DNA of 57,346 nucleotides, taken from positions 1,364,001 to 1,421,346 of the forward strand of contig NW_027191415.1 of assembly GCF_041146345.1 (NCBI RefSeq), read 5' to 3'. This DNA comes from Neodothiora populina. Its lineage: Eukaryota. How positions within the stretch are numbered: the stretch's first letter is position 1; each line of letters opens with the position of its first letter. Positions 23,418 through 57,346 of this stretch are shown here, one piece after another. The position numbers and the translations under genes were made by a program. The notes below the pieces were generated by a model. That model was not told the origin of the DNA. It saw nothing but the letters and a program-made list of their open reading frames with translations, and searched no databases.

Positions 23418-25499
23418 TCATCGCTTCTTTGTACTGGTAGTCTTCGCAGTAGAACTGGTTGTCGTCTTCTTGTCATCACTTTTTGTCGAAGCACTGCTTG
23501 TGACAGAGGCAGAGGATGTCGGAGCGGCACTCGTCGGCGTGGCTGAGCTGCTAGAAGAAGGTGCTGCACTTCCAGAAGACTTGATGGAAGTCTGTAAGGT
23601 AGTGGCGGTATGGGTGCTCCAGTAAGTCTCTAGTGCACCTTCGACTTCGTCGGCATTCTTGTAAGCTTCCAAGCTGATGAACCATTCGCATTTCTTGCCG
23701 ATTTTTTCATCCTCGAAATCACCATCTCGGCTCTGCCACTCTTCTTCTTTAAATCCCTTGGAGCGGTAAGTTGAGTCCATCGGATCCAAGAATGTAGTCT
23801 TTTCATCGTAGCCGAGATCTTTTATGGCTTTGACATCCATCGCAGCCATCATCTCATGGTCCTCATGGATCAGATTGTGGCAATGGAACATATAAAGGCC
23901 ATCCCATGGAGCATAGCTAGGGAGCATGAGTTAGTTCCTAAAATTCTCAAGATGGGAGCATGCTGCTTACCGAGCAATGACTTTGACGGTCTCGCCTCTG
24001 TTCAGCCATACCACATCTTTCAGACCTGCTGCCTCGTATGGTAGAACCGTGTTCCTTTCTCCACCACTTCGATTGAGGATCTGAAAGTCAATAAGGTGGA
24101 TGTGGATTGGATGGGTCCAACCACCAGATGAGTTTTCCAATTCCCAGACTTCGACAGCTCCTCTCTCGGGTTTGGCAATGACTCTGGCTTCTGGACCAGA
24201 AGCCCAACTGATGCCATTGACTTGCCACTGACCGTTGCTGCGCTCGAATTTGAAATGACGATCAACAGTGTCTTTCTTTGGAGGGTACTTCACGCTACGG
24301 AGGGTAGCAGGCAATGGGCCATTACCGTCTTGGGATGTGATCTTGGACCCGATCACAAACCGCATGACCTTATCTGTGCCGGCGTAGTCATCATCGGCGC
24401 CAACTTTACGGTTGTTGCGAAGGGTAACATTTTGACCCTCATAACCAGTGAAGTCGAAGACGATTTCCCAACGCTCTGCCATCGAAATATCAAGCTGGGT
24501 CGCTGGGATTGGTTTTGTCAATAGACCAGTGTCGGAACCAATGACATTGAAACCAAGCCTTGTGCCTGCTTTTTTGTCTGCTTCGAAGTACATCTGGAAA
24601 GATCTACTGATGGACGAGTCCAAGAAACGGAAGCGGTACTTGCGAGGCTCAACTGCCATGTATGGCCAAGGCTGACCGTTGACCTGGATAACATCACCGA
24701 AGACGCTCACCGTCTCACCATTTGCCTCCGGAGACCACAATGAGCCGTCGGAGTTGTATCGTTTTGCTGCCAACGCAAGAGGTACATCATACTGCCCCAT
24801 GGGGAGGTTCGACGCACGTTCCTGGGCATCGTGCATGATGTAAAATCCAGCTTGACCAGAGTATGCATTCTCCTATCGAAGGTGTTAGTGTATACAGCTT
24901 CCCTTCTCATAAATATACTACACACTGCAGTATGATCGATGGCATGATCGTGATACCAAAGTGTCCTTGCATTCTGAGCATTGGGATAGTAATAGTCCTT
25001 GTACTGTCCAGGTTCGGTTGTGTCCTCGGCCCAGCCATCGAAAGGAGCCCGACCTGAAGAGCGACTTAGCATGCCACAAGTCTCAAACTATCAGAAACCG
25101 TATGCATACTGTATGATCCATGAAGATGGACCGAATTGGCTCTGTCTGCATGGTTGACAAAGCGGACAACGGCTTCTCTGCCTCGCTCCACCATGAAAGT
25201 TGGGCCAGGAACCATGCCATCATAACCCACGTGTCTCGTCTTCTTCAGATTGGGATAGATCTGAAGGTCCACTGGTTTGATATCGATTTCGTAGTAGTCC
25301 AAGTTATCATAAGATCTTCATTGTGGTTAGTAGTGGTAATCATGAGATGTCTATCCTTCACTCACTTGTAGGGTGTCTTGATTGGCGGTATAGGTAGAGG
25401 ATACTGGTAGAAGTCCTTGTATACAGGACTCAACCACTCCGTGTCTTTAGCCACAGCTAAGGAGCCAAGAAGGCCAAGTGCTAATGCCAGTGAATGCAT
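23418..25499 (-). CDS. Bilirubin-oxidase-type secreted multicopper oxidase; join(25499..25366,25315..25110,25053..24926,24872..23971,23916..23418), 622 aa
   Basis: Signal peptide MHSLALALGLLGSLAVA. All four Cu motifs present: VHLHG, WYHDH, WTHPIHIH and HCHNLIHEDHEM (Met axial ligand). BOD-specific SRAPFDGWAED. Four GT-AG introns keep the frame. Ser/Thr-rich tail. Confidence 0.93.
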
Positions 25500-36029: not shown

Positions 36030-37325
36030 ATGGTCCCTGCAGCGGCGCCACGCCGCAACTCCAACCCAGCATCGCCAGAAAGTGCCGGAGCTGCGAGCAA
36101 AGATGCGCCGTTTGCGATGGTTACCCGCTCCCGCCGCCGAGGCGTTCTGAACGAAACCCCGCAGGACTGTATAACTGTGGGATCTCAGGAGACCCACAGG
36201 ACGGGGCACCCTATGTCCTCAGCTAGGTTAAGGGAGCCACAGCAGAACGACAGCACAAAGATCCTTGAGGCTGTCCGAACCCTGTCTACTGTGCCTGATC
36301 TGGTCCATAAATTGCAAGATGAACTCCAGAGACAAAACCAAAGCATTGAACTGCTCAAGAGTGGACAAGAGCAAGCACGACAGAAGCAGGAAGAACTTAT
36401 CTAGCAAAACTCTGCTCTCCAGGCACAGATCTCTAACTTGTCAGAACAAGTAGAGAAGTTGATACAGCAGGGTGGAAGAGCAAACCCAACTCCACCTCAG
36501 ACTTGGGCAAATGTGGCACGCAGGGGACATACGCTGGAACCGCCCAACCTCCCTAAGCAGGCAAAACCAAACCCTACTACACTCCGCCTCTTCACTTCTC
36601 TAGAGCCAACCGGATCCGAGGAAGTAAATGATAGCTTTACAAGATACATGCCAACGGAGAAAGCTACCACCATGATCACCCAAGCTCTTCAGAAGTATAG
36701 CCCTACAGTAGATGCACAGCTGCTTGGGGTTGGCAGCACCAAAACGGGTTACCTTTTGAGGTTCAGAAACGAAACTTCCACGGAGTTAGCTAAGAAAAAC
36801 AGTGACTGGACTAAGGACTTGGGACAGAGGTCAAGGGTCGTCACACCTCGCTTTGGGGTGGTAGCGCACCGCACCCCAACAGCGGAAGTTGACATGGACG
36901 AGAAAGAGGAATCAATAGAAAAGATCATGCGAGAGAACGAGCTCGCTAGCAAGGGTTCTTGTATTGAGGAGATTGCTTGGCTAAAGAAGAAAGATTTACC
37001 GCTCGGACAGTCAGCCTCTTTGGGAATCTGGTTCAGCTCTGCGGAAGCTGCCGAGCAAGCTGTCGCCCAAGGATTAGTTTTTGGTCAGAGGTTTGTCCCT
37101 ACTATCGAGCATTACCAGTCTCGAAGGAAGAGATGCTTCAGATGCCAAGGCATCGGGCACATTGCTTGGAACTGCAAGGAGAAGGAGAGATGCGACAACT
37201 GCTGCGGAGAGCATAGCAGGCGTGACTGCACTGCCACTACCTTGAGATGCGCCGACTGTGGAGAGTCCCATCCTACAGACTCTGCTAGCTGCAATAGCAC
37301 ACTGGGATCCTCCCGGCTGCAATGA
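36030..37325 (+). pseudogene. LINE-A ORF1 (gag-like) with one in-frame TAG at 36402
   Basis: Knuckles CFRCQGIGHIAWNC, CDNCCGEHSRRDC and CADCGESH. The stop aligns with CAG in the 30.9 kb relic. Confidence 0.9.
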
Positions 37326-40300
37326 GAGACACCCTAAAGATCCTCCAATTGAACATATACAAATCAAGGCCTTGCATGGAGGCACTTATTAACGACACCA
37401 CCACAGCAGATTTAGATATCCTCCTTATCCAGGAACCCCCGGTTTCCTTCTTCAAGACATTTGTGCAACACCGACAATGGCAAGCACACACCCCAACCTA
37501 CCAGGGAACTGAGAGAAAGCGGGCTATGCTCTACATTAACAAGAGAATCTCTACATCAACATATCAACAGATCAGATGCGACAGCCCGGATGTCACTGCA
37601 ATCCAAATTCAAACACCACATGGACCTGTCAGCATCTACTCGGTCTATGTTCCACTAATTGGAGGTACATTTCAGGCAGCGGAGAAGGAGATGCTGGACA
37701 CTCTACATGCAATCCAGGCAACACAAGCTAGTCATAACACCGACCCAAGTGATAGCATGATCATGTGTGGAGACCTCAACAGACAAGACCCATTATGGGG
37801 AGGCGATCACATCCAGCCATACCGGGTTGGTAATGCAGCCTCTCTCCTCCTGTTTATGCAGGACCGAGGTCTCCAAAGCCACTTGGAAAGAGGCACTCCC
37901 ACGTGCTGGTCTACAACTAGACCAGGGAGCAGGACAACTCTGGACCTAGTGCTCAGTAACATCCACTCTCGTCTCCTTAAATGCTCTCTCTATCACAACA
38001 ACTACGGATCAGACCATCGTGCTATCTTTGCGGAATGGAGCATATCCCTCCAGCACAAAGAAGAAAGGCCAGCAAGAAGAGTGTATGAACGTACGGACTA
38101 GGAGAAGGTCGGAGAAAGCCTCCGGGCAACTCTCGGAACCCTTTAGGAAATCACAAACACAGACGAGCTAGATGAGGCGGTGGCCAACCTAGTTGACACA
38201 ACCACAAATCTAGTCATTCAGCACACACCAATAGCTAAGCCATGCCCATACTCAAAGCGCTGGTTCACACCGGAGCTAAAAGAACACTAAGCAAGACACA
38301 ACAAACAACGCAGATTCTAGCAATCCTGTTGTGCAGCTAGAGGTCGGGATGACCCCTTCACACAAAGTCAATTTCAAGAGATGCAGAAGCTACGCAAAAC
38401 GTGGACGAGGGCTGTCGAGCACGCTAAGAGTAGCCACTGGAAGGACTTCCTGGACCAAGCTGGAAAGGGGAACCTCTGGAAAGCTGCAAAGTACACCCAC
38501 CACAAGGATCAATACGCGCCCATACCACCTCTCACATCAGAAGGGAGGACTGCTACCACTAGCGAAGACAAAGCACAAATGCTGCTAGAGACATTCTTCC
38601 CTACACCAGTCCAACCTGCCACCTTGATGGAGCCCTCCAGAGAGGTAGCACTGAGCTGGAATCCACTCACCAAAGCGGAGATTCACTAAAGCCTCCTTAC
38701 CAGTAGAGGACAATCAACCCCGGGTCCTGACTCACTTCCTACGCTTGTGTGGCAGAAGCTCTGGCCGTACATCTCTGACACAGTCCACCAAATCTTTACA
38801 GGCAGCATAGACCTGGGTCACCATTTAACAGCATGGAGGACAGCCGCTATAGTGGTCCTACAGAAGCCTCATAAGGCAGACAAAACCGTCCCCAATGCCT
38901 ACAGGCCTATCTCGCTTCTCAACACCTTGGGGAAGGTTTTAGAAGCTGTCATGGCAAAAAGACTATCCTTTTACGCCGAGAAACATAACCTACTCCCGGA
39001 CACGCAGTTTGGAGGCAGACCGGGCAGGTCCAATGAACAAGCTCTTTTGATTCTAATGGATGCTATCTGGTCGGCATGGAGGCAACAGAAAGTGCTATCC
39101 CTTATGTCATTCGACTTGAAGGGCGCCTTCAACGGAGTGAATAGCTTAGTGTTAGACTAATGCCTGCAGCAAAGACGCATCCCGGGAAAGATGAGGACAT
39201 GGATTCAAAGCTTTATGACAGCACGCAAAGCGTCTGTAATACTAGACGGACACACTAAACTAGAAACATACCTTGAACACCCAGGAATCCCACAGGGATC
39301 GCCTCTGTCACCAATACTTTTTGCCTTCTTTAACGCTAATCTAATAAAGCAACCGGTGGATTTCATAGGAGGAGCCTCGGCCTACATCGATGACTACTTT
39401 CGCTAGCGCATTAAGCCGTCAGCACAGAGCAACCTATCCAAGCTCTAGAGAGAGGATATCCCAAGGATTAAACAATGGGCAAGGCAGACTGGTGCATGCT
39501 TTGAACCAAGCAAGACGGAGCTCATTCACTTCTTAAGAAATAAGTCGCAACACTGGCCCACAACAATCACAATGGGCAATCACGAAGTGAAGCCAAGTGG
39601 GACATGCAAGCTCCTAAGGGTTATATTTGACTAAGAGTTAAGGTGGAAGCCGCACGTGCAGAAAGCATTCAGCCGAGCCACAAAAACCTGTCTAGCCATA
39701 GGCCACCTCCACCACCTCCGGCCAAAACAGATGCGGTAACTATACTAAGCCTGTGTCATCCCTCAGATGGATTATGCATCCACCGTGTGGCACTCCCTTA
39801 AAAGCTGCAAATGGCGGCTTTCTGTACTGTCTAGAGTGCAACGCTAAGCCATAATTAGGACAATTTCAGCATTTAAAACAGTGGCAACAGAAACGCTGGA
39901 CACAGAGACCTTCCTGCTGCTAACAAAGCTTAGGCTTCAGCAGAGATCAGCGAGAGTCATTATAGGCCTGCAGGCGCTCCTAGACAAACATCCGGCGCAT
40001 TAAGTCCTTTAAAGAGCTCTTCGGAACCTCAGCCACACGAACAGCTTCTTAAGCCCACTTCATTCCATGTTAAAATCTCTTAACCTAGACCGAACGGATG
40101 AGGCAGAAACGATCGACACCTGCCCACCTCCACCTTAAGAGCAGTCCCCATTCGTAGCAATCACATCGAAATTAACAAGCGAAGAGGCTATTAAGGCGAT
40201 AGAGCAAGCCGTCTCCGAGTTACTTAAGTCTGTCGTCTACACCGATGCAGCAAGCAAGAATGGGAACTTAAGCGCAGCGGCAGTTATTATAGATCAACAC

Positions 40301-41230
40301 TTACAGATACAGTCAAGCTCTGCCATTGGAGTAAGGTCGAGTAATCACTACTCTGTTCACGCAGCAGAGATGATTGCTATCCACTCTGGCATACACCTAG
40401 CTGCAGACCAACACGTGCGAAGCTACATGCTGAAGCCGCACTTATACATTGTTGCTTGTGACTTTAAGACCGCACTTCAAGCCATTTCCAAACCAGCAAG
40501 GCGTGCTTCTGGCTAACATATAGTGAGGACAATCTATAAAACAGCACAGTTCTATCGAGAAAGTCTAGGCATCCGGTTCAAGCTGCAGTAGATCCCTAGC
40601 TACAGCAAAATCTCAGGAAACGAGCTAGCCGACAAACTGGCTAAGCGAGCTACATCTCAGCTAACGAGACACGATTTCAAGAGTCTTCTAACCGTTCAGA
40701 GGCAAGCTATCCAGCAGGACACGCTCAAGCAGTGGAGGACTGAGTGGAGAGCCTCAGTAAAAGGGCAACACCCACGCAAGGTCGATGCCGCCACACTAGG
40801 CCCACATGTTCGACACCTATACGATGATTTACCAAGGAACAGAGCGAACCTACTAGCCCAACTACGAACAGGCCACTGCTGGCTTAAAGCTTATCGCATG
40901 AAGATTGGCTACGAAGATAATGACAAGTGCGAGTGTGGGGAACCGGAAACAGTGGAACACGTGCTAATGGAGTGTCCCTTACTACAACAACTAAGAGCCA
41001 AGCTACACGAGAAGATTAGAGACAAGTCGAAAAGGCTTTCGTCAATACTAGGTGGAAAGCCGCACCCACGACAGCTATCGCTAGCAGGCGCACAAGACGA
41101 CGAGGACAGAACACGCACAGACGGCAATAGCAGTGAACGCTGGAAAATCACCTCTACGGAGCTTACTGCAGTGCTGGACTTTGCAGAAGACTCGCAGAGG
41201 TTTACAAGAAAGGAGAACACAGAAGACTGA
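37322..41230 (+). pseudogene. LINE-A ORF2 (endonuclease-reverse transcriptase-RNase H) with many in-frame stops
   Basis: LQLN, LIQEP, GDLN and SDH (APE); YRPISLL, QFGGR, DLKGAF, GIPQGSPLSP and YIDD (RT); YTDA and GNELADKLA (RNase H); CECGEPETVEHVLMEC. Confidence 0.93.
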
Positions 41231-41411: not shown

Positions 41412-42777
41412 ATTGGCAAGCGGTCCCCGCGAGTAACCTATGCATCCAACATATATGCAGGATCGAACCGTAGGGTTGAAACGCCATCGAGTAGCGCAAG
41501 AAGATTGGTGCATACTGGAAAGCTGTGTTCTTGTCTATGGAGTCTATATGTGTTTAGCCTGATAGGATAATTGCATAAGTTTGGGAATATGGCAAATCGA
41601 TCGGCAACATGGTCAGTCAACCGCTGAAGATAGACAAGAGCTTGAGCAGCATTGCAAGTCCCGCGCCACTCATATATTTCACCCAGCAGTTTCGTATCGA
41701 CAGATATACGACACGGGGCCAGTGACTCCAGGATGGTAAGTATCCTCTCGGAACTTCCATGAAAGTTGTTTCGTTGGCTAAAATCTAGGTCCAAAAACCA
41801 TGGTCCAGGCATATTCGGCGATGCTGTAGACTTCATAGTACACAGTTTTTCGTCAACTCGACCATTATCATTAATGCGAGGCATCTTTCTATCGTCGTTC
41901 CCACCGACGTGTTGTTATCGAGAAACTCGTTTATAGTGTCCAGTCTGCTGTGAATGCAGTCATATCACGCTGTGGTCAAGTTAAGCGCCATGAGGGACCT
42001 GAAGATCGATCCGTAGGTCAAGATCTGGTAGGACAGCGCCACGTCCATCTTTCATGTTATAGCGATAGCTTAAGAAATTGATCAATCATTCAATTCTATG
42101 TAATTCCAAGTCAAGACATTCTATGTGCAATCTTGCAAGTATAGCAAGTGATAGTAGTGAAGTGTGAAGAACTGCTTCCATCTCTCGTCGTTATCGTGGC
42201 ATAGGCTTTGGAAAGCTGTGAAGGCCCACTTCGTGCCCCTGTGATGTCTTGCTGAGTATAGACGGTAACGCTTTTCTCGCTTGTGTTGGCTTCAGCTTCT
42301 GGGGCAGTGGACAATTGCAAGAAAGATGGACTGAGGGACCGTTGTTACAGGCGTGTATCGGACGAGGTATCTCTGTGATGAATCATCTTGAAAGACGTAC
42401 CATAATAACCCTAAGGTGTGCCTTGATCTTGAAGGCAAAGACTACGCGCTGCGTTACAGTATAAGTCGAGAGTGCGTCGACTTAGTGATTCTCAAACCTC
42501 TTCGGTCCCTTGCTGCGGCTGATGGAGGTATCAGTAAGCAGACTTGATGATTATAACGCTTGCTGTCAGGACAGACTCTAGCTTTGACTGCATGCATCCC
42601 GGTTATATATAGCACCATATCAAGTCCACGGGCGCAACAGGCACCAGGTTCTTCTGGAAGCCAACAAAAACCGATACATAAGTGTTGATATCGATTTCCT
42701 CAATAGTCGGCTATGCCGAATACTAGTATACCATGTCCCAAACAATATGACAAGCTAGATAAAGAGCCTCTTCACTT

Positions 42778-44755
42778 CTATTCTATACGAGCATGGAAAT
42801 CTCTACGTAGACTCTGAGCTAACCGTAAAGCCCGCTCTCGAGTATCTGAAGATATGAGAAACATGCCAAGTTTGACTGGATTGTCCGGGATCGTCGAACC
42901 TTGCGGGAAGAACCAGCAATGATAATCGATATAGGTTATAAGGGCTGGTCGCAGCGCTCGTAGTTCTGCCAAGGCATCTCCAGTCTTAAGAACACCTCCT
43001 TTATGCGAGTTGATGTAGACCATGACGCAGTGGCGTTGAGGTCCGGAGAGGAATTGTTCCGAGAGTGCAGAGAACCGTTCCGGCTCTTCTAGTGCTGCGA
43101 GAAGATGCAGAGCAGTATAGTCCACACCAAAATTGAGCGCTGTAACCCAAGTGGCACCAGATCCCGGAGGTCGCTGATTTATCTCCAATAAGAAAGCTTC
43201 CGGAGCCTTTGTGTTTGTCTGGCCGTGCAGGCGTATGTCTAGGTAGCCATCCTCCTCAAGATAGCTGAGTGCAGAATTCCTTATACGACCTTCAACGTGG
43301 TATATACCTGTACGAAAACCCGCGCGTAGTAAGGTTTTATGAAATGCGGACCGAATCATGACTTGTTCGGAGAGCGGATGAGCGGACGGCCATACCATGT
43401 CCGTCTCGAGAAAGTCTTTGGATTTGTCTATGCCACTTCCTATCTCTGCAGTACAAGGGAAGCCGTCCACTAATTCGAAAAAAAGGATCTTCCCACCCTG
43501 GAGGACAAAGTTGGCATCAATCTCCGGTCCTCGCTCATAAGTCTCGATCATGATGTCGATGCCGTTGTATGCATCTGCCAATTTGCTGACTGCACTGGTG
43601 AGCTCATCATGGTCAGACACTAAGTAGACACCATTAGAGCCCCAACCAAAGCATGGCTTGGCGATAACGGGATAAATGAGCGGCTCCTTCGTGCTTCTCA
43701 GTTGGGTTTCCAAATCAGATACTCCCGTGACCCGTATCGCCTCCGCGTTTCCTTGATTCTTGGCTTGCGTGAGATGCTTATCAGTGCTCGTTTGGACACT
43801 TTCGAGAGGTGCAGTCCTGAGGCCAAGCCTCTTCGCTGCCTCAGCCGTGGCGATGAAACATGCATCCGTGAAGGTACAGATCCCATCAAACCCCTGCTTA
43901 TCTCCAGATAAAGCCTGCACAACGCGATTAGAGAGCCCGAAATCTGGGGACATGTCAATGGGAATGTATTGCTCTATGACATCAGGTGCGTCAGCTTGCT
44001 GCAACCATTGACCTTGCGCACCAACAACTGTGAGACGAAGCCCCATGTGAAAAGCTGAGGCTAGCCATCTCTCCATCACTATTGGAGGGCGACATCCCAC
44101 CAGAATAAGTCGAGGGTGACGCAAAGGACTTGGCACAATCCAGGTACACGAAAGTCGATCAGACAGCATTCTGTCCATTGCTTCCATCTTATCTCCCATG
44201 GACCCCGATTGATCTTGTTGGACGACGACGGCACCCACAACAAACTCAAGAATCTCGTGAAGATGAACATGTTGACTCAAACCCGGGAGATAAGCATGGA
44301 CGTGATCTGTGGGTTCAAGAAAGGACACCACAAAGTCGACAGACTTGCAAAACGTCAACCTTTGCAGCAAGAAATCAGACCGTACTACATATCCCGATTG
44401 TAGAGAGAGAAGCAGTTTGACACCGCTCTCTTTCTCAGATGGCTGCTCTTGAGTCTTTCGTGCCATTGACAAAAGGAACTCTGTTGCTCTTGCAGACTGT
44501 TTACTTGATCTTGTTCCATCTTGTCTTGGCGTTTGAGACAGGCCAATGTCTCCAGGCAAGTAGTCTTGACTCTGCCAATACTTCGACTGCTGATCATGAT
44601 GAAAGACCACATCAATCGTCAAATACGTCTTGCTAGCTGATGCAGCTATCTTAGCATCTCTGAGGCGCCACGAGTAGGGGAAATGTCCTGTAAGTTTGTT
44701 AGATTATATCTGCGCTCTGTCAAGACGAGACGTGTGAACCTTTATCGTTGAACAT
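42778..44755 (-). CDS. ATP-grasp amino-acid ligase (FsqD/L-amino-acid-ligase-like); probable join(44755..44740,44687..42778), about 641 aa
   Basis: Intact frame with IAKPCFGWGSNGV, IETYERGPEIDAN, FLET, YHVEGR and LLEINQRPPG ATP-grasp motifs. The short first exon is inferred from a CTAAC...CAG acceptor; its donor (GTTCAC) is weak. Confidence 0.88.
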
Positions 44756-46941
44756 TACTGCGGTGTTTAAGCAGTTCAATCTTACGACTGTCGGAAGTAC
44801 GTGGCAAGTGACTAGGAAGCTGTGGTCCGTAACGTGTAGCTATTCAAGAAATATGCTGACCGGCTGTATCACAAGCAAATGTCGGACTTTTTCAGAGGCA
44901 TCATGATGATTATATAGTGCATTCAATGCTCTGCGGTGACCACGGAGTATCAGACCATGAAATGCTTCTCGTCGTACGTCTTGCATCCCATTCTTTGACT
45001 AGTTTCGGAGATCAGATACTGTCATCTAGGCTCTAAGTCCGATCTCCGATGACAAAAATATCCGAGCTCGATGTGTTGCAGGCTGCTCGGAGATTCTGCA
45101 TTTGCATTTCGAGAACTGTATGAGTACCTTCGCAAGTTGTGGCTCTCTATGTAAGAAACCTTTCGACGCAGTTGCTGCTCTTTCAAGGTATAGGAAAGAA
45201 GCAAAATGTTTGTTTCTATATGGGAGGTTGCGAACCTGGCTGTATCTCTGCTTTCTGGTTTCAATTCTGACTGCAGCTTATATCTTCCAAAACTAGGTCC
45301 AGTAGAAGCTATATACCGCCAAGCTCCATGTCGTAGAGCTTTCTAATCTTTGGCCATTGACAAACGACTAGCTACTGTAGATATCTCGTACAATCATGTT
45401 CGAAGAGTATTTTACACTAATCACGTGATCATAGTCGGAGTTGGAGCCGAAACCAGAGGTGGGACCAGCTTCGCAACCTCTGTGACAACCCTCGAGCTAC
45501 GCAATGGATTCGCGGCGAGAAAACGTGACTCTTAAGGTAACACTTGGTCATTTCGAAGCCTGCAAATACGCTTACGCTGCACCTAGATGTCCGTTGTATA
45601 GTTTATAGTACAATATGTAACTTGCAGGTCTCGTGCATTACTGGTCTCTCTAGACTACAACTAAGTGTATGTAGTTACGATATCTGCAGTACGCCTTAGA
45701 GATGATCCTCATGTCAGGTAGTCGTCACACCTTCCTATTTACCCTAGACTGATCCACATCAGGAACGGATCATACTGAAATGCTTCCTGAAAAGGAAGGC
45801 GTGTGCTAGATTACAGTACAGCTACTAGCAATTCCCGCTTGTGGATAATCAAGACGCATTGACCTGATCCACAGTAGGCATCGTTGCCTCGTAAGCCATG
45901 CACTGCGCTGGTTTCGCTGCATAACGCGCGACATGAACCAGATCCAGAGATTTGAATTTGGTGGGTCGCGCAGTCAAGAGATATCTTCAAGGCCTCTGGT
46001 TCTTTCCTCGGGGTACCGTACCTTACGATTAGACCATTTTCGTCGCGCGGTGATTCACATGCTTTTTTTGTCTAATACTGTAGGTAAAGGAAGGCTCGAA
46101 TTCCGAAATTGATGGGTCCACTACTTTGTGGATGACAGAATATTAAAGCTACAGTAAGGTACATTAGCGCCATTTTGATTCAAATCCTTTCAATACGACG
46201 CTTTCCTAGGATATCATCATGCAGACTGCGGGTCAAATAGATGGATGCGACTGATAGTGCTGATCCACAGATTGAGAACGGAGTAACAGAACTCATTGTG
46301 TTGCGGCCGTGTACAATCGACATCTCGCTACCCATCCTGTGAATGCATACGTAGTCCGTCCCTGACTCGATAAGGTGGCACAGTGAACGAGCTTAAGTAG
46401 CGCTCCAGGTTACTGTAGGTAAGGTAAGCACCTTACTGTACAGTGAGTCGGTACTATATACAGTACAGTACTGTATAATCCAATGTCACCACCTGGAAGC
46501 TTGGTCCAAGATAAGATAAGGTAGGAGGACAACTTTATCAAGGTACAGTAGTACTGCACGAAGGAGTTCGTTTCTAGTCTGTCAATATGCCGCAGGGACC
46601 TCAACTCAGCAAGAACGAACTCCTTCGTAATTATCTTACTTACAGTAAATCAAGGTACTGTACTGTACTGTACAAGTACAGCCTACGATCCTCTACAAGT
46701 GGAGACGCTAGGCAAGATCAAATTAACTCCCGGTCAAGCGAGCTTGGCGCGATACCGACCACCTTTTACTGCACGGGCGGGTGTACTGGCATGCCACTGT
46801 ACTCTTATTCTGCACATCCTCCCCTTAATAAGGCTCTCGTGATGCAACACATGTGTATCGCTCTCTACTGTTCATACCTGCATACGCTCGTACATCAACA
46901 ACATGCTCTGTACATGACTTGAGTACACCTCTTGCTCGAGA

Positions 46942-49484
46942 ATGACAAGCACATATCCTCTGTCCTCCGAAGGACCACAGCTTCATCGTGACTCGACCGT
47001 GCCGAGAAAGAAGCGTAAAACCTTAGCGTGCAATAATTGTCGTCGCCAAAAGCTTAGATGCGACCGTGCGAATCCTGTGTGTGGTCGATGCTACACTACG
47101 GGCTATGCCGACTTCTGTATGTATGGTCGCCTCGAGTCGGATCCCAAGCAACATCCCATCAACGAGAATCAAGAATTGGCAAATCATGAGACAAATGAGC
47201 ATTTTCAAAGGAGCGCTGGTTCTTACACAACGCTCCAATCAGCTGGCGCAGTGGCTTATACCACCTCCAACCATCCTTCTTCCACAGATCCTTTTGCTTT
47301 CCTGCCGCTCGACGTAGAAGGTACGGAGGAGGACTCACAACATGTTCGATCTCGAAGAAGCAGTCCAGAGACTCTGCAGAATAGACAACCATCCATTATG
47401 TGGCGTGGTCATGGTCAGACAAGTAGTGGGACAGCAACTGTAGAGCAAAGCACGACCGTAAAGCGCGCACGGGAAACGGAGCAAATGACCTTCAGAGGGA
47501 AGCTCTTTCAGACACAATATTTCGGTGCTACCAATCCCATCAGTTGGGGTGCTCAGGTGTGTCTTCTTCCATCAGCATTGAATTGGCTAGAGATTGATTG
47601 CATCAGTTTTCCGAGTTACAAAACTTTATGGTTGAGTCAATCAGTCGGGATAGCACCCTTGCACAGGTGCAGCGATCTCTCAAGACGTTACAGTTGCAAT
47701 GGAAGAAAGTCAAGCCAACTGTAGCCGAACTGGGAAATATCGATTCTCAGCATCTGCTTAATCTTCTTCCTGATCAGCCCACGGCAGAACGATTGATCAA
47801 CGTCTATTGGAGCACCTTCGAGACTACGCATCGCATATTATACAGGCCCAAATTCTGGATCGACTACCACATTTTATGGTCGAATCCTATGACGGCTTCG
47901 GCTGAGTTTGTTGTCATAGTCCTGCTTGCAATGGCATCTGTAAGCTGTATAATCCCACAGGAACGAATGTCGTATAAGGGCGACAGTTCTTCTCCTCGGG
48001 AGCGGGCCATAGCCTGGGTCGAAATTTGCGAACATTGGCTTGATCGACAAAGTCAGAAGAATATCTCTCTATCGCACTGGCAGGGTCGATGCTTGCTGCT
48101 ACTTGCGAAGATCTCCAATACCATCAAGAAAAAACAGACATGGAATGTCGCAGGAACCCTTATACGGCAAGCGATGTCAGCTGGATTCCACAAGGACCCC
48201 AGCCTACTGGGTACACCGATGAATCTTTTCAATCAAGAAATGAGACGACGTTTATGGGCGACAATGGTCGAACTTGAACTTCAGGTATCCGTAGATAGAG
48301 GGATGCCCTCCGCAGCGGTAAACATATCATGGAGTGCCACGAATGTACTAAATGTGGAGGATGAAGAGCTTGGTGAAGGTGATGATGCATCGCTGAGACT
48401 GCACACCTGGAACTCACCCACCTCCGCATCTTTCCTACACATTGGCAGAAAAAGTCTCCCGCTTCGGCTGTCACTGAATACATTTCTCAACAACTCAAGC
48501 GAGCAGATCACGCATGATAGTGCTTTTGATTACGACGAACAGTTGAAACACCATTTGCAGGAAATTGGCACTTACTACCCAAGCTTTGAAGTGGAAGGGT
48601 TGGTGGACGCCGTCCCCAGTCTGTCCGAAGCTCTTCTGGTAATTCAACTTCAACAATATTTACTGCTGTTGCACACCCCTTTTGCCATAAAATTAGATTC
48701 GAGTGCCCGGCATTCAGCTTCCAGGCTGGCGTGTCTGGATGCAGCGAGCGCGATTATGGAGAAATGCTCCAAGCTCTCTGTGATTGACTATAATGTCATC
48801 TCCCTCTCACGCACCGAAGTGTTCCGGTCCGCTTTCGTTACTTGTCAAGTCATCGAGGCAATGAGGGGTCTCCAACGTAAGTAGATGTGCATCGATATCA
48901 CTGCTGCTGTCGCTGTACATGCTAACACGTATCAGACGAAAAATTGCTACAGCGACTGGGCAACAGTTTGCACGGATATCTGGATATGGTACTGGCAAGA
49001 CTGGGGGATAATATAACGCAGCTGGGTACAGGCTTCACTCACTATTGGTATATATCAGCCGCGAACAGGTTGCTTAAGTCAAGACTATCGTTAGCAGATG
49101 TTCAAGTCGAGCACAAAGTTGCTGTTGATCAGGTCATAAAGCAATATTATAAAGTGCTAGCTTCACAAGAAGATGTGTCCACTACAAGCGCACTAACCAA
49201 ATACCGGCAGACATACGGGGTTTGTGATGCATGCCCTTTGGCCAATTCTAATGCTAACCACGACGCAGTTAAACAGAGAGACCTTAAACACAATGGTCTA
49301 CGATACCAACGTTGCATCAGCAGAACCACAAGGAGCACAGGTAAGCATCGAGATCTTCCGCCGCATCAGTCATTTGTTGAAGTCATTCCATCTATAGGTC
49401 TCCTTCGAACTTCAGCCATTAGACCCACAGGTCGATGAGTTTTTCTTTGGCGATCCTGTAGCATGGACATTTGAGAATATTTAG
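46942..49484 (+). CDS. Zn(II)2Cys6 transcription factor with fungal TF middle domain; join(46942..47556,47607..48876,48936..49219,49269..49340,49398..49484), 775 aa
   Basis: ACNNCRRQKLRCDRANPVCGRC...C cluster; AMSAGFHKDP and EMRRRLWAT. Four GT-AG introns keep the frame. Confidence 0.9.
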
Positions 49485-50878
49485 TCGACCATACTGTGCG
49501 CATTGTTCTCCACGGGAGCTTCTGCACGCCCGATATGCTGGGAGTATTCGTTGAGGGTAAGGTCCACGTCGTGACTTGTAATCGACTGCTTATCAGCTAA
49601 GAGTTTCACTCTCTCGGTGCATATTTTATACTGTTCATCTGCCATGATGATGTTCAATTGGATCGCGCGGTTCTTTATTGCATTCCATCCTGTTAGCCGT
49701 GAAGCAAATTGGACATTTCTGGAGATACCAAAGTCGGCAGGATTGATCGATTCGTAAGTTTAAGGGTTGTTCAAAACAGCCTTTGCGTGAATACCGGCCT
49801 TATGATTGAATGCGCAGAAACCGGTGATGTAGTTGTTGAATGGTAGATTCAGCCCGAAAGCCTCCGTTACCATTAATTCCAAGTCCAGGAGCCCTTTTGC
49901 TTCGTATCTCGAGAGGACGTATTGACGATCTGTGACAATCATGCGTGCAAGGAAACCACCCAGCGGGACGACACCATTGCGTTGACCAAGACCAAGGACG
50001 GATGTCTCGATATGCATGACACCTGCTTCGACTGCGCAGAAGGCGTTCGCAATAGAGCAACCTGTATCATTCTGGAAGCCAGCTTAGAACTCACATCCGA
50101 CGACCCTATTCATCGTCCTGACTAGATCAAAAACCTGTCATGGATGAGCATCTCCTGTCGGATCGCCGATGACAACTCTATGCACGTCCTCCAAGTGGAG
50201 ATCGTTGCACAATGTTAAGAAGTTGGCCGGTTTCATTTGGAAGGCATCCTGGATTGACACAGACTTCAACCGCCATAAACCTGGCAAAGTTCAGAATTCC
50301 GATATATGTATCTTTCCACAATCCGGAACAAGGCGCCCATACTTGGTCTGGTATTCTTATTTGCCTGGAATTCATGAAATTGGTGACCATGACAGCAGCT
50401 CCGTTGGTTCACTTACAGTCCTTGCACGCCTAACTGTACAGCTAGTCGTGCCTCGTCAAGATCACATTCGACCTCTGCGGTGACCTTGTTACGTCATGTG
50501 AGTAAGTGACAACATTTGGTTTGACTTTTCAGCGACCACCTTCGACTTCTTGAGACGCATCTGACATATCTCGGCACACTGATTCTTCATATCCTCAGAG
50601 ATCGCGGGGCTTTAGAGTAGAATCTGTAGACTCACAATGGGTATGAGAAGATTCCAAGTAAGTGATTGTATAGGTCGGTGGGTACTTACATAGTCCACTC
50701 CAAAGCCATCGAGAGCTTGTACCAGCTTCTGCTCGAATTCCCTTCCGCAGAATGTGTTTGACAAGAAGCCGCCGTTGTAGAGAGTCGTGTCGACTATCTT
50801 TTAGTCACTGGGATGGCTGCCATTTCGACTTTTATCTCGTAGATCTCCATGTGGTCTGACAATATCTCTCGACTGCAT
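49481..50878 (-). pseudogene. Homocitrate-synthase-like (Lys20/21/Lys4 family) pseudogene
   Basis: [53 protein letters not shown] and ASRLTGWNAIK. Three introns are recognisable. In-frame stops at 50801, 50612, 50138, 50084 and 49760, plus a frameshift near 50255. Confidence 0.88.
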
Positions 50879-51431
50879 TGCTCCTTTGCGACGGGACAAG
50901 CAACTTTATCTACTCCAAGCGTATGAAATTAACCCTGACTGGGAGCAAAAAGAGGTCAAGCTACAGCGTGTGTAGTCACTTGGGTGGCTTAGAGCTGATC
51001 ACAATTTGGACCTGAGAACGGTACTTCATGATGAATATCATGAACTGTGGTGTCGGCATTGATGCTTATCAAGTTTCGTACGTTTAGGCTGAGAAGTCCG
51101 ACTGACGTAGGTTGATGTTGTAGTAAGTCATCAACCTTATCTTATCTAATCTTCGATTTTCGCGTGATTCCAATGTTAGGCGTCTCCGATTGGATGTATG
51201 TTCGGAGATGAGAGCTGATTAGATCGGACATCTTCGGGCTTTTGATACATGCTCGGCTTTGACTGCATACGTCCAGATATAAGTATCTGGCCCATATGAT
51301 ATCTATGTCCGAAAAGGAACTTCATCTGATACCCGCGCAGCCGACACAGACAGCAAAATTCGATTTGCTTGTTGAAACTTGACATTTTTGTCTCACGAAT
51401 AAGATGAAAACAGTGTACGTACTGACACTAC

Positions 51432-53462
51432 ATGAAGCCAGAAGCAAGACCTGAACTTGTTTACAGAGTCATTGCGGAAAATCGTGACGATTCTACGATT
51501 GAGGAGGAAGCTGAGAATCTTCAAGAAAGTAAAATTGAGAAGCAGACGAAAGTCAGCCCAAAACGAGAACATGAGTATCACAAAGACTGTGATGACCAAG
51601 ATGAGTCTGGACTTCGCCGAGTCCCAGGCAGGATACCAGCTGCTGTGTGGCTGGTTTCCCTTGCATCAATGTGTGAGCGATTCGCATACTATGCATTTCT
51701 TGGACCTTTACGTAAGAAGTCGTCATTTGTCGAACTTCTCAACATTACCTAAAGCTGACGGTCTGAAGAAAACTACGTGCAGAACCGCCGCGGGGATCCC
51801 GTTAGACCTGGAGCGCTCGGGTTGGGAGAATCTAAAGCATCAATGCTTGTTACAATATTCCTGCTTATCAGCTATGTGACGCCTACCTTAGCAGCCGTGG
51901 TCTCCGATAACTACCTGGGTAAATTCCGTACCATATCAATCTCACTGGTGTAAGCAATTCTCTTGATAGACATGGCTCCATCATTACAATTGTCAACGTT
52001 GGACTGACTTCAACATAGGCTGTACATCGTGGGGATTGTGGTTCTTCTTATAACGTCTATTCCGAGTCTACTTGCACGTGGCTCTGGCATACCTGGATTT
52101 GTGATATCAATATTGATTGTTAGCATGGGTACATCTGGGGTAAAAGCAGCCTTACCACCATTTCTCGGTAAGTACCTCCATTCGCAGGCTAAAATAAATA
52201 CTCAACTCTATTCCCAGCTGAGCAGTGTGGAGCTGGCAAGAACGAAATCAAGACTACAAAGAAAGGAGAACGCTATGTTGTTGACTCTGACGCAACTCGG
52301 GAATACGCATTCAACATATACTATTGGTACAGCGAGCCCCATATGACAGTCGGGAATCTTTGAACTGAACATGTAACACAGGTGTGTTAATATTGGAGCC
52401 CAATCGCGAATCCCAGCAACTTTCATTGAGAAGAGTGTCGGATTTTGGTTGACATTTCTCATGTCTGCGGTATCCTTAGTCCTGTCCTTGTTGGTGTTCG
52501 TAGGCGGGAAAAGTATGTACTGTAAGTTCACTACGTTCATAAAACTCTTCTCAGCATAGTAATTTCGATCAGTGAAAGAGGAACGGCAGCCAAGCATGTT
52601 GCCAAAGGCACGTCAGGCGTTCACTATTGCCGCGAGGCACGGCTTCAAGATGGATGCAGCCATACCTGCAAACACGCTCGAGCGTGATCATAAAACGGTA
52701 CCTTGGAATAATGGCTTTATTGAGGAGTTGAAGATTGGCCTAGTTGCATGCCGTGCTTTGTACGATCCAATACTAGACATAGCATTTTGTATCTACTAAC
52801 TCTTCTTTAGCATTCCCTTCTCGATTTTCATTCTATGCCAGAATCAGATGTCAACAAATACAGTCTCTCAGGCAGGAGAGATGAGAACACATGGTGTGCC
52901 TAACGACCTGTTGCCGAATGTCAACTCCATCACTGTTATCATCTTGATGCCGATCATAACCCATGTCTTATATCCGCTGCTCCGCCGGTGGAACATCGCT
53001 TTCCCTCCGATCACGCGTATCGCAGTAGGCTTTGCATTCGAGTCTCTAGGTATGGGATACGCTGCAGGCATCCAAGGCTGGATATACAGTTCTGGGCCAT
53101 GTTACACACACCCCCTAGCCTGTCCCGCATCGAAGAACGGAACGATAGCGAACAACGTCCACATCGCAACGCAGATTCCTGTCTACGTTCTTGAAGGGCT
53201 AAGCGAATCCTTCGCGTTTCCAGCTAGCTACGAGTATGCGTATACCAAGGCTCCGAAAAGCATGAAATCAGTTCTGCAGTCAGTCCTTTCGCTCTCTTTT
53301 GCTGCCGCAGCGATTATAGGACTTGCCTTGAGTCCAACCTATCACGACCCGTATCTTCTTGCAATGTACGCTAGCTTAGCAGGAGTCATGCTGCTCACAA
53401 CACTGATCTTTATTGCTGTGTTCTGGAAATATAATAAATTGGAAGCAGGAATTAGACATTGA
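51432..53462 (+). CDS. POT/PTR-family di/tripeptide transporter; join(51432..51711,51769..51949,52019..52167,52218..52326,52382..52521,52573..52759,52811..53462), 565 aa
   Basis: CERFAYY, QNYVQN, PGALGLG, D.YLGKFRTI, YWCVNIG, SQAG.M..HGVPND and EYAYTKAP.SMKS. Six canonical introns; frame intact. Confidence 0.92.
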
Positions 53463-54151
53463 GTTGGGGGACCGCATAGAGAGTTTGGAACAGGAAGAAT
53501 AGAGAACGTTTGATTTATAGGAGTCTAAACACATTCTGAATGCGGATCAATAGCAAAGTGGAAACAGACCGAACGAGAGTGACATCCTCCAATGGTCACT
53601 TATGATAGGCAGAGTCAATCCATATAATGTAGGGCTAAGCTAGCGGCTGAATCGTCATTATGTACGGAGTACGGAGTATATGATTTCCCCAAGAATCGAC
53701 CCCGGCTCCAAGTGGCCTGGACCAACGTCATTTGAGGGATACTACTCAGGCGATTGATCGCGTATATCCAAAAGCACTGCTTCTCAATTATGCTTCCTAC
53801 GGCTAGGTCCAGTATGCCGCCTTCACACTCTTCAAACAGGTTGGACGTTTTGATGTTGCTGCATCTTTTGGTTTCTAGAACCATGTCGGAGAAGCAAGAG
53901 CCAGCTTCTTCACCAGTGTAGTCCGTGGACTCTAGCGAGCAAGAGCTCCAAGCCGCCAGGAACCCAATTGCGTAAAGTGTGTACAGAGTTTGGCTTGTCC
54001 AAGGCCTCTATTCCTGGGCAAGAGCAGCATTCTACGGCCTGAGCCAAAAATTCCGTGTATCTCCACCGATTCACCCTCGAATATGGCATCAAGCTGATTG
54101 ATACTATATTGAAATTATTTCATCTGGTATGTGTACATCTACCGGTGATAC

Positions 54152-54446
54152 CTAAGTAGATACTGGTTGGTTATTAAGAACCCAATTTACTCCATCGACA
54201 ACGATCTCCGGTTGCGTTAATTGGACAAAGTGTCCGCTCTCGGTGGCAAAGACAAGCTCGCTCTTAGTAGAGAGCTCCAGAAACCTCTTCATAAGCCCAG
54301 CGTTCTTCTCATCGATATCCGCGATCAAATCTCTTACATAGCTCCTTTCCTCCTCGGTCCTATTGCCCATAGCAATCCCCGCCCTATACAAGCCACTCCA
54401 ATCTCTACTCCGCATGCCGCCAATCACAAAAACCGGGCTACCCAGT
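54152..54446 (-). pseudogene. 3' remnant of an alpha/beta-hydrolase gene truncated by LINE-B
   Basis: LGSPVFVIGG...LELSTKSELVFATESGHFVQLTQPEIVVDGVNWVL contains the catalytic-His motif (SGH.VQ...PE). Upstream sequence is replaced by the LINE tail. Confidence 0.75.
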
Positions 54447-55250
54447 ATTGATTGATTGATTGATTGATTAGTCTATCAAGCTATTCACGGTCTTATCGTC
54501 CGTATGAGCTGTCCAATGTCGTTCCCTCGTTTTCTTGTCTGTTGCTTAGCCTCACAGATAATAAAAGAAGAACCCTAACGCCCCTTGTTCCTTAATCGCT
54601 ACCCTCCTGTTGCTGTGGAGGGATAGCTGCTATCCTGGTTGTCTATTAAAGAAACCGGACCGTCGCTTTCACTATTTTCAAATTCGGTCTCTACTACTCA
54701 AGCGGGCTATCTACTAGCTAATCTGTGTGCATTTCTCTTTTCTTACTGTACCCTTTTAGTAAAAAGGACAAGTTACTTTATCTGTTCCCTACTATCTGCT
54801 TAAGTTCTGCTTGTATGCTTATTTAACGCTAGCACTAGAGAAGCACGTAAGCTACTGTCTTATCTTCCTGCCTGCATTTGCATTTACTACTTTCCTCGAC
54901 TTTAATCTTTACTAAATAGGATCGGAGATGAGTATAGTTCGTTCTTACTTGTACGAGAATACCCGCTTGCTCGGAGTTTAGCGCTCCGTAAAGCTTAAGC
55001 GTGTGCTTGCTTAAGAGAGCTGCATCTAGCTTCTATGTGTATTGACCCCATCTGTTTGTTCTTAGTGTCTAGGCTTCTAAACGCCTTTGTTCTACAAGGT
55101 CCTTAACGAGGAGTGTTTAGACTACCCCGCTCTTCCTAATTCGGACGTTAGAGTTTCTAAATAGTTTCGTGCCTGTCTCTGTAGTAGTCTAGGCAGCCTA
55201 GTGAGCACATTCGTTTCCTGCATTTCCTGTATGTGCTGGTACCTACCCAC
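54447..55250 (-). mobile_element. LINE-B 3' fragment (RNase H end WVPAH.GN.GNE to the (AATC)n tail), RIP-mutated
   Basis: Colinear with 35067-35817 and 55253-56050. Differences checked in the 3' region are C>T/G>A. Confidence 0.9.
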
Positions 55251-55252
55251 AA

Positions 55253-57242
55253 TGATTGATTGATTGATTGATTGATTAGTCTATCAAGCTATTCACGGTC
55301 TTATCGTCCGTATGAGCTGTTTAATGTTGTTCCCTCGTTTTCTTGTCTGTTGCTTAGCCTCACAAATAATAAAAGAAGAACCCTAACGCCCCTTATTCCT
55401 TAATCGCCACCCTCCTGTTGCTATGAAGGGATAGCTGCCATCCTGGTTATCTGTTAAAGAAACCGGACTGTCGCTTTCACTATTTTTAAATTCGGTCTCT
55501 ACTACTTAAGCGGGCTATCTACTAGCTAATCTGTGTGCATTTCTCTTTTCTTACTATACCCTCCTAGTAGAAAGGACAAGTTACTTTATCTGTTCCCTGC
55601 TATCTGCTTAAGTTCTGCTTGTATACTTATTTAGCGCTAGCATTAGAGAAGCACGTAAGCTACTATCTTGTCTTCCTGCTTGCATTTGCATTTACTACTT
55701 TCCTCGACTTTAATCTTTACTAAATAGGATCGGAGATGAGTATAGTTCGTTCTTGCTTGTACGAGAATACCCGCTTGCTCGGAGTTTAGCGCTCCGTAGA
55801 GCTTAAGCGTATACTTGCCTAAAAGAGCTGCATCTAGCCTTTATATATATTAACCCCATCTGTTCGTTCTTAGTGTCTAGGCTTCTAGACGCCTTTGTTC
55901 TATAAGGTCCTTAACGAGGAGTGTTTAGACTACCCCGCTCTCCCTAATTCGGATGTTAGAGTTCCTAAATAGTTTCGTGCCTGTCTCTGTAGTAGTCTAA
56001 GCAGCCTGATAAGCACATTCGTTTCCTGCATTTCCTGTATGTGCTAATACTTAAACAAAGGTCACGTTAAGTCTACTCCGTTCGGCGTCTCGAAGCGTTT
56101 GGAGGGTGCCTTAAAGTGCTTCCCTGCCTTGCTTAGTACTGTTGCCCTTCACTATAGCTTAAAGTGCCTCTTGGCTGTCTATGGCAATCACATGCTTATA
56201 GTTCGGACCGTGTAAGGTGAGGATATGATTTAACGCCATCTTTATCGCTTGTAGCTCCGCAGATAGGACCGAGCATGTCTTAGCTCATCTAATAGTCGCC
56301 TTGTCTACAACTCGTGGTGTAGACGAACCGACCTTTCTTACTACTGCACACCCGCTTACCCTATTCTGCACGGAAGCGTCGGTATATAAAACCACAGGCC
56401 CGTAGTTCTGTGCTGTACGTAGCTGTCTCCTTGCTTCATTTATATCTGCAATGTACTAAGTGGACCAGTCTTACCATAGAGGTGCTATCTACGGCTGTAG
56501 TAGTATTCGTGTCGGGCCGTTCTTTAAAGTATATCTCACCTTATGCTGCCGCTAAGTCCCATGTAGTAAAGACTACCACGTTTCTCCTTTAAATTTAATG
56601 TAACGGATACTTAACCACGCTAAATTGTCCTCCTCTGCTATAAAGATGGTCTGCAGGTGTTTAGCTACCTTCCTTGCCAGTCTGTCTGTTACTAGTTTAA
56701 GGGAGGCTTCTACCTCGAGGACTGCTGCTGATACTCGTTTAAAGGACCTTATTATAAGTTGGGCTTTTAGCTTCTAAACTCGCTATAGTTTATTAATGTG
56801 TCGTTCTATTCCCCACTTGCCTCTGCTGAACTAGGAGGACGCTGCGTAGTCCGTAGTAGGTATGATTACCGAGCAATACAGCTGCCGCATCTAGTTTAGG
56901 CGCATACCCTTTAGTCTCGCTAGCGCTAGACACTTGACTGTGGCTGCTGTCGCTACTTTCTCGATATGGCTGTCCATTTGGAGCTTTCTGTTTAAGGTGA
57001 CCCTAAGGATCTTTATTTGGTCTTGGTCATGGATCTCTGTCTTGTTGAAATGTCCTTCGGTACCCTCCGTTCGATTAGCCTTCTGTAGAGTACCTCTGTG
57101 TGAACTCCGTTAAAGGCCCCTTGCACATTAAAGGTGACCATTAACAAGACTCTCTAGCCGCGCCATGCTTCGTAAATGCGTTTAATAAACACGTCGACCG
57201 CCTGTTCGCTTGACCTCATCGGCCGGCCCCCTATATGGCTCA
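55253..57242 (-). mobile_element. LINE-B copy (partial RT, RNase H, 3' UTR, tail), internally deleted and cut by the telomere
   Basis: From the telomere: SHIGGRPMRSSEQA...VTFNVQGAFNGV...RRVP, then a jump to IKIL(G)V...MRQLY.SV..PTTDYAAS. RNase H FYTDASV. Tail at 55253-55277. Confidence 0.9.
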
Positions 57243-57346
57243 TTAGGGTTAGGGTTAGGGTTAGGGTTAGGGTTAGGGTTAGGGTTAGGGTTAGGGTTAG
57301 GGTTAGGGTTAGGGTTAGGGTTAGGGTTAGGGTTAGGGTTAGGGTT
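57243..57346 (+). repeat. Telomere (TTAGGG)n, 17 perfect units to the end of the sequence
   Basis: Read directly. The G-rich strand runs 5'->3' toward the end, as expected for a right chromosome end. Confidence 0.99.

Follow-up and report, generated by a model that had tools for sequence, protein, structure and literature searches.

A partly decayed subtelomeric gene group of Neodothiora populina with a putative dipeptide-type ATP-grasp ligase, a POT transporter and a Zn2Cys6 regulator

What might a compact fungal gene group make when it holds neither a polyketide synthase (PKS) nor a non-ribosomal peptide synthetase (NRPS)? The question is raised by a 57,346-nucleotide stretch of Neodothiora populina (NCBI RefSeq assembly GCF_041146345.1, contig NW_027191415.1, positions 1,364,001 to 1,421,346), the whole of which is referred to here as the window. 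Close to its telomeric end, the window carries an ATP-grasp ligase gene, a Zn2Cys6 transcription factor (TF) gene, a homocitrate synthase (HCS)-like sequence, a POT/PTR2-family transporter gene and a piece of an alpha/beta-hydrolase gene. The original prediction treated these as a compact system for making a dipeptide, possibly with a lysine-pathway-derived or lysine-mimicking residue. A scan of open reading frames (ORFs) and Pfam domains, with a homologue search for the hydrolase, recovered all five elements where they had been placed. The layout agreed as well, with two divergent pairs, ATP-grasp (−)/TF (+) and HCS (−)/POT (+), followed by the truncated hydrolase. The ligase, regulator and transporter retain the intact open frames claimed for them (561, 775 and 565 amino acids), and, in agreement with the original prediction, no PKS or NRPS domain was found in the 82 ORFs of at least 105 amino acids outside the gene group.

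The answer proposed here, held with slightly better than even confidence, is a partly decayed, subtelomeric, NRPS-independent cluster. Its core would consist of the ligase, a dedicated POT transporter and the local Zn2Cys6 regulator, and its product would be a small dipeptide-like amide. The predicted dipeptide-making system thus survives in part: the modelled ligase fold is that of dipeptide ligases and the link to a POT gene recurs elsewhere, whereas the HCS-like enzyme and the hydrolase are dead.

The ligase and its transporter partner

The ligase gene is a single exon on the minus strand (42778–44463) within an ORF spanning 42778–44703, the first ATG being at 44463. Its Pfam match to ATPgrasp_N scores 53.6 bits (cut-off 27), and that to ATP-grasp_4 scores 24.9 bits, just below the cut-off of 27; the database homologues have both domains. 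The closest of 46 database relatives, P0001, is 63% identical at 100% coverage, the next reach at most 48%, and one relative of 40% identity bears the automatic name “ATP-grasp enzyme fsqD”. All 37 invariant columns of a 20-homologue alignment are kept in the window protein, including E427, N429 and R431 of an E-x-N-x-R motif, and K269 is nearly invariant across the alignment with the window protein included. This lysine, in the beta-strand before the Gly-rich loop, and the E-x-N-x-R residues are taken here to be the nucleotide- and Mg-binding residues of ATP-grasp enzymes.

The AlphaFold model of the ligase has a predicted local distance difference test score (pLDDT) of 87.5 and a predicted template modelling score (pTM) of 0.89. 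Its top match among PDB structures is BL00235 (3vot), with a TM score of 0.83 normalised to the target and an E-value of 1.8e-28. The L-amino-acid ligases RizA and BacD/YwfE are also among the top matches (chains 4wd3, 3vmm and 3wnz). A GAR-synthetase-type chain (4dim) ranks third, and the PurT, PurK and biotin-carboxylase types rank below the L-amino-acid ligases. A sequence search of the PDB gave L-amino-acid ligases as its sole matches, from the same families as the structure search, with “VIAKP...GSNGV” of the window protein paired with “LVVKP...SSQGV” of BL00235. The N-terminal 100 residues or so form an extra small alpha/beta domain that the bacterial enzymes lack. The nearest ESM Atlas entries are two ascomycete clusters, one of 142 and one of 411 members, and the larger has the same domains and is automatically named “Carnosine synthase 1”. 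On the evidence of the model, the ligase has the three-domain ATP-grasp fold, in the form closest to the L-amino-acid (dipeptide) ligases.

The 3′ end of the ligase gene (42705–42966, including 73 nt past the stop) also matches other contigs at about 87% before diverging: two X1 contigs of 5907 and 9573 nt, and an X2 contig of 1835 nt at depth 5.7. A paralogous ATP-grasp-like gene is probably present elsewhere in the genome, and is deeper in X2 than the window copy.

The POT gene (51432–53462, plus strand) is intact and codes for 565 amino acids. Its model was built by hand with seven exons (51432–51711, 51769–51949, 52019–52167, 52218–52326, 52382–52521, 52573–52759 and 52811–53462) and six GT..AG introns of 50–69 nt. 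Pfam places pieces of PTR2 (PF00854) on the plus strand at 52008–53462, the last exon alone scoring 109.8 bits. Full-length homologues of 557–606 amino acids match the spliced protein over almost its whole length, without gaps at the exon junctions; residues 42–562 match P0172 at 43% over 526 columns, and residues 15–565 match P0178. The subfamily is small, with 137 representatives at E ≤1e-30 among 1.84 billion. The region of the ExxERFxYY motif reads S-M-C-E-R-F-A-Y-Y, in which the second Glu, the Arg and FxYY are kept and the first Glu is replaced by Ser; that Glu is also missing from four of the five aligned homologues shown. The ExxER motif of POT proteins has a role in proton coupling. 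If this role holds for the subfamily, its transport may differ from that of classical importers.

The association between the two genes was followed in metagenome contigs scanned with the family alignment, which yielded 59 ATP-grasp loci (29–48% identity) that were then searched by tblastn with the window proteins. A POT of the same subfamily lies 0.7–5.8 kb from the ATP-grasp gene, mostly in divergent orientation, in nine of the 59 loci, or in six of 44 distinct groups once near-identical loci are merged. Among loci with at least 3 kb of flank on both sides, it is present in seven of 19 (five of 14 distinct groups). The flanking DNA surveyed totals 544 kb. Fungal genomes hold only a handful of POT genes each, so that well under one POT would be expected by chance in these flanks. 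The POT matches cover 454–522 of the 565 residues in L003, L008/L010/L012, L025/L027 and L044, and 196 residues in L033, where the contig end cuts the match. Breaks between tblastn segments near POT residue 93–94 recur across loci, which fits a common intron position. At L002 (2145–2387) the transporter is reduced to a fragment of 60 residues beside the ligase gene, suggesting that it can be lost from the pair.

Trees of both families bear on the same point. In the ATP-grasp tree of 83 rows, which omits 13 of the 59 loci because their match was below 420 residues or held stops, the POT-linked genes fall in several separate well-supported clades. The linked POTs are clustered in the POT tree (129 rows), and none of 500 label shuffles was as clustered; the window POT shares a seven-row clade of 97% support with that of L003. 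From these comparisons, the link between ligase and POT is judged not to be a matter of chance. The other genes do not travel with the pair. No match to the HCS pieces, to the middle and C-terminal parts of the TF or to either hydrolase ORF was found by tblastn in the 59 loci, and the TF zinc finger gave a single generic match of 40 residues, in L013. Because of these absences, the conserved unit appears to consist of two genes and not five; in these metagenome loci, the predicted co-occurrence is seen for ligase and POT but not for HCS, the main part of the TF or the hydrolase.

The remaining neighbours of POT-linked ligases are mostly enzymes of small-molecule metabolism and vary from locus to locus. 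They comprise a YqcI/YcgG protein at L003; a ferric reductase, a HODM-like protein, a beta-eliminating lyase and a 2-oxoglutarate (2OG) oxygenase at L012; a hydrolase, a pyridoxal phosphate (PLP) enzyme, a PQ-loop protein and TauD at L027; and a ferric reductase and a rhodanese at L033. At L044 (5748–11725), the ATP-grasp and POT genes stand alone, divergent, with retroelement fragments on either side, and this locus may represent the minimal two-gene form of the unit. Ferric reductases accompany the POT-linked ligases of L008/L010/L012 and L033, as well as the ligase of L045. In another clade, a nicotianamine-synthase-like gene adjoins the ligase in L034, L037, L039, L040, L046, L047 and L053 (PF03059, E 1.4e-58 at L046:7160–8356). 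Such neighbours hint that some products of the family could be metal-binding.

The regulator, the dead genes and the subtelomeric setting

The TF gene (46942–49484, plus strand) is intact, with five exons (46942–47556, 47607–48876, 48936–49219, 49269–49340 and 49398–49484) and a product of 775 amino acids. Pfam detects Zn_clus (36 bits) and Fungal_trans (49.4 bits) on the plus strand at 46918–48884. The zinc cluster of the spliced protein has six cysteines at a spacing of 2-6-6-2-8, which fits CX2CX6CX5-12CX2CX6-8C. A contig of 2428 nt from the public run X2 aligns to 46866–49508 and skips four GT..AG introns of 49–59 nt, the removal of which leaves a single open frame of 775 amino acids. Run X2 and the assembly derive from one sample, and the kind of the run is labelled “DNA?” by guess. 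As the contig lacks four canonical introns, its simplest reading is a transcript, and the TF is likely, though not proven, to be transcribed. The TF stop codon (last base 49484) and the stop codon of the HCS pseudogene, read on the opposite strand, share bases, and the spliced TF contig continues into the 3′ end of that pseudogene (49481–49508).

A 14-mer with two tandem GATA cores, ACCTTATCTTATCT, occurs about 420 bp upstream of the TF start (46509–46522, minus strand) and again about 285 bp upstream of the POT start (51134–51147, plus strand). These are its only two copies in the window, where 0.01 would be expected, and none of 100 shuffles reached two. The element was discovered post hoc, and is therefore only a weak hint of common control. 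GATA cores are typical of nitrogen regulation, and the 14-mer may be a candidate for a shared nitrogen-type control element. The similarity around the two copies does not clearly extend past the 14-mer, and no convincing CGG..CCG-type Zn2Cys6 site is common to both promoters.

The HCS-like sequence lies on the minus strand at 49481–50818. A few bases of its 3′ end fall within the TF stop codon, and on its other side a spacer of 611 bp separates it from the divergent POT gene. Pfam finds HMGL-like and HCS_D2 pieces at 49481–50083 (minus strand). The C-terminal half aligns with residues 230–415 of the Schizosaccharomyces pombe enzyme (3ivs) at about 63% identity (E 1.3e-68), with an in-frame TAA at the serine of the family's NPSTYE. 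The footprint on Aspergillus HCS P0050 covers residues 55–435. Residues 1–54 are absent, the stretch matching residues 148–189 is shortened and unrecognisable, and the aligned blocks hold five in-frame stops. TLREGEQ, the substrate motif of HCS, has become TLYNGGF, and HFHND has become GFQND, with loss of the HxH that provides the metal ligands. Judged by these lesions, the HCS-like gene is a pseudogene with no part in the present-day locus. The original prediction, which named three intact frames, made no statement on the frame of this gene. The genome's real HCS is located elsewhere; an X1 contig shows a 62-nt match with nine differences.

Some of the history of the copy can be read from its remains. 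Even its best-preserved part is only 59–67% identical to all 120 database matches listed, as against 74–94% (mean 81%) among seven real HCSs from different ascomycete lineages compared in 21 pairs. Its composition indices are ordinary (TA/AT 0.61, (CA+TG)/(AC+GT) 1.23). Low identity and ordinary composition together point to an old copy that went through ordinary decay. Repeat-induced point mutation (RIP) was considered as the cause and is ruled out by these indices, RIP-like composition being confined to the terminal repeats. Intron-like sequences are still present, which indicates that what arrived here was a real gene, not a processed copy. With five stops, no N-terminus and both motifs lost, the lysine-pathway-derived or lysine-mimicking residue originally suggested does not hold: because the HCS-like gene is dead, the idea has no working enzyme behind it at the locus.

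The hydrolase is a truncated relic (54155–54469, minus strand) that corresponds to residues ~212–317 of a protein of ~317 amino acids. The homologue search gave up to 79% identity to AB hydrolase-1 proteins, and the tblastn matches cover the last third only, without the GHSWAG-type nucleophile region. Pfam and PDB sequence searches of the fragment (E ≤10) returned nothing meaningful. The “beheaded” hydrolase of the original prediction is an apt description, as the C-terminal third is kept and the N-terminal two thirds are gone. What is left marks it as a dead relic without a present-day part. The homology ends at 54447, where two tandem copies of a subtelomeric repeat of about 808 bp begin (54447–56060; direct repeat 54447–54746/55255–55554, 95% identical at a spacing of 808) and cut the gene off. 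These tandem repeats are strongly RIP-like, with TA/AT of 1.5–1.7 and (CA+TG)/(AC+GT) of 0.81–0.85. RIP-like composition (TA/AT 1.5–1.7) runs across 54447–57240, unlike the adjoining genes, and a reverse-transcriptase-like ORF lies beyond the repeats at 56891–57109.

The subtelomeric position claimed for the group is borne out by 17.3 units of TTAGGG at the end of the window (57243–57346, plus strand). The group itself, of about 12 kb, lies 3–15 kb from this telomere, flanked by the subtelomeric repeats and by a degenerate LINE-like retrotransposon (36405–41230, plus strand) that forms the centromere-side boundary, with Exo_endo_phos_2, RVT_1 and a weak zf-RVT on broken frames. The coding regions of the group show no RIP signature in their composition indices, and the 2.5 kb that separate the ATP-grasp gene from the divergent TF gene (44464–46941) have borderline values (TA/AT 1.03, (CA+TG)/(AC+GT) 1.05). 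The 66 spacer ORFs of at least 40 amino acids matched no family, bar one weak FAM216B match (E 0.0098) that was disregarded, and family searches with the ORF at 53618–54007 (minus strand) gave none. The window is fungal nuclear DNA, the first 19 kb of which carries housekeeping genes including Sec6, ribosomal L7/L30 and a WSC protein. Multicopper-oxidase domains occur at 23421–25087 (minus strand), spread over three ORFs through introns or decay.

Competing explanations of the locus

In the proposed cluster, the ligase would turn a carboxylate, whether of an amino acid or of a small organic acid, into an activated acyl phosphate, which it would then join to an amine to give a dipeptide-like amide. 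The POT protein would carry this product, or a peptide-like precursor, across a membrane. A “Trojan-horse” antimetabolite, of the kind brought up in the original prediction, would be a speculative identity for the product. The Zn2Cys6 regulator would switch on the ligase and POT genes together. A number of observations weigh against this proposal. POT proteins are normally importers of peptides, and so fit poorly with export of a product. In the window, ligase and POT are separated by 7 kb that hold the TF and the pseudogene, a wider gap than in any related locus. No POT was found in 50 of the 59 loci, many of them on short contigs, or in 12 of the 19 with good flanks; other ATP-grasp clades pair instead with ABC transporters, NRPS-like adenylation–reductase (A-R) enzymes or nicotianamine synthase. 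The neighbourhood survey draws on metagenome loci, and so on more distant relatives than P0001–P0005 (43–63% identity), the closest ones. In X2, the ligase is represented by two contigs of about 167 nt only, at a depth of about 2, and contigs are absent from the POT gene and most of the pseudogene. Finally, with two of the five genes dead and RIP-affected repeats adjoining, the remaining genes may be decaying too.

These weaknesses give room to other explanations. It is unlikely that ligase, regulator and transporter are chance neighbours, that is, unrelated accessory genes brought together in a gene-shuffling subtelomere. The position of the block between a LINE-like element and telomeric repeats, its two pseudogenes, the 7-kb gap between ligase and POT, and the absence of homologues of the TF main part, HCS and hydrolase from related loci would all agree with such an origin, but it does not account for a same-subfamily POT beside ATP-grasp relatives in six of 44 distinct loci within 544 kb of flanks, for the clustering in the POT tree that no shuffle equalled, or for the 14-mer common to the promoters. 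The proposal that all five genes form one working pathway, with the HCS-like enzyme supplying a lysine-pathway-derived or -mimicking acid to the ligase, is scarcely credible, and for the present-day locus it is already refuted by the stop codons. The missing N-terminus, the unrecognisable residues 148–189, the lost TLREGEQ and HxH motifs, the identity of at most 67% to any HCS listed against 74–94% among real ones, the lack of an HCS match in the 59 related loci and a hydrolase without its first two thirds all speak against it. They outweigh the divergent spacer shared with the POT gene and the surviving intron-like sequences, together with the coupling of non-amino-acid carboxylates, such as epoxysuccinate in E-64, that is reported for fungal ATP-grasp enzymes (PMC12568646).

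A silent relic that makes nothing, in which three frames are open only since decay has yet to reach them, is quite unlikely. Such a state would suit the two dead genes, the RIP-affected flank, a best database relative that is only 63% identical to the ligase, and the ~87%-identical paralogous stretch that is deeper in X2. However, five stops have built up in the HCS copy against none in 1.7 kb of ligase, 2.3 kb of TF and 1.7 kb of POT coding sequence. This difference, with every family-invariant residue kept in the ligase, points to continued selection; moreover, the coding regions carry no RIP signature and the TF is seen as a spliced contig. A primary or nutritional role is very unlikely. 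The ligase would then make a carnosine-like storage or protective dipeptide, or re-ligate imported peptides, with the POT as an ordinary nitrogen-scavenging importer. While the “Carnosine synthase 1” name of the 411-member fungal cluster with the same domains, the GATA cores of the promoter element with their link to nitrogen and the import function usual for POTs lean that way, the family is patchy and its neighbours are varied (oxygenases, PLP enzymes, NRPS-like enzymes, nicotianamine synthase), and a subtelomeric site with its own regulator fits accessory metabolism better. The proposed cluster of ligase, POT and regulator is thus retained as the preferred explanation.

Wider meaning and comparison with known systems

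A broader suggestion is offered tentatively, with less than even confidence. Fungal NRPS-independent clusters built on the ATP-grasp/POT pair as their minimal core could form a class that is widespread but as yet uncharacterised, and that core-enzyme-based predictors would miss. In each such cluster, a dipeptide-type ligase with a POT of its own would be joined by amino-acid-tailoring enzymes that change from one cluster to the next, and the products would be small amides. Within such a class, the dead HCS copy could be the relic of a precursor-supply gene or of a resistant target copy. Fungal ATP-grasp-ligase pathways without an NRPS have become known only recently (E-64, NK13650), and a recurring ligase-plus-POT unit, if true, would make further ones simple to find by way of two genes. 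How such systems use transport would become a question as well, as POTs are known mainly as peptide importers. For the window itself, only the ligase and POT, with the regulator alongside, stay in focus out of the five genes, and the lysine-pathway idea is dropped. The original prediction did not recognise the gene combination as a characterised cluster, and the literature search likewise found no description of it: a full-text search, with subscription journals outside its coverage, returned no paper that deals with an ATP-grasp/POT or ATP-grasp/HCS cluster in fungi.

Two of the genes have well-known counterparts. The transporter resembles the POT/PTR2 di- and tripeptide transporters in its PF00854 domain and ERFAYY sequence, with the first Glu of ExxER changed to Ser; what sets it apart from these transporters in general is its small subfamily, whose members are often found linked to ATP-grasp genes. 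The C-terminal half of the pseudogene is like S. pombe Lys4 (3ivs), from which the window copy differs by its lost motifs, N-terminus and open frame.

In the logic of the system, the closest analogue is dipeptide synthesis of the bacilysin type, in which a dipeptide ligase is paired with a transporter. The closest solved folds are likewise those of the bacterial L-amino-acid ligases, namely BL00235 of Bacillus licheniformis, RizA and BacD/YwfE of the bacilysin system. Identity to these enzymes is 13–19% only, and the window protein differs in being eukaryotic, in its ~100 extra N-terminal residues and in its POT partner. In fungi, the fsq cluster places an ATP-grasp enzyme with an NRPS-like A-R enzyme, and other clades of the ligase family stand beside A-R enzymes as in this fumisoquin-type layout.

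The closest fungal analogues, compared here by description, are the ATP-grasp steps of FsqD (fumisoquin), AnkG (NK13650) and Cp1B/Cp2B (E-64). The E-64 paper presents them as ATP-grasp enzymes of NRPS-independent or NRPS-light pathways, and terms the known fungal cases “limited examples” (PMC12568646). Coupling of non-amino-acid carboxylates, such as the epoxysuccinate of E-64, is part of the same account (PMC12568646). None of the FsqD, AnkG and Cp1B clusters is described with a POT, and the word “transporter” is absent from the main text of the E-64 paper (PMC12568646). The window differs from these fungal clusters in turn, as it pairs its ligase with a POT gene and is without an oxygenase, an amide-bond synthetase or an NRPS-like gene.

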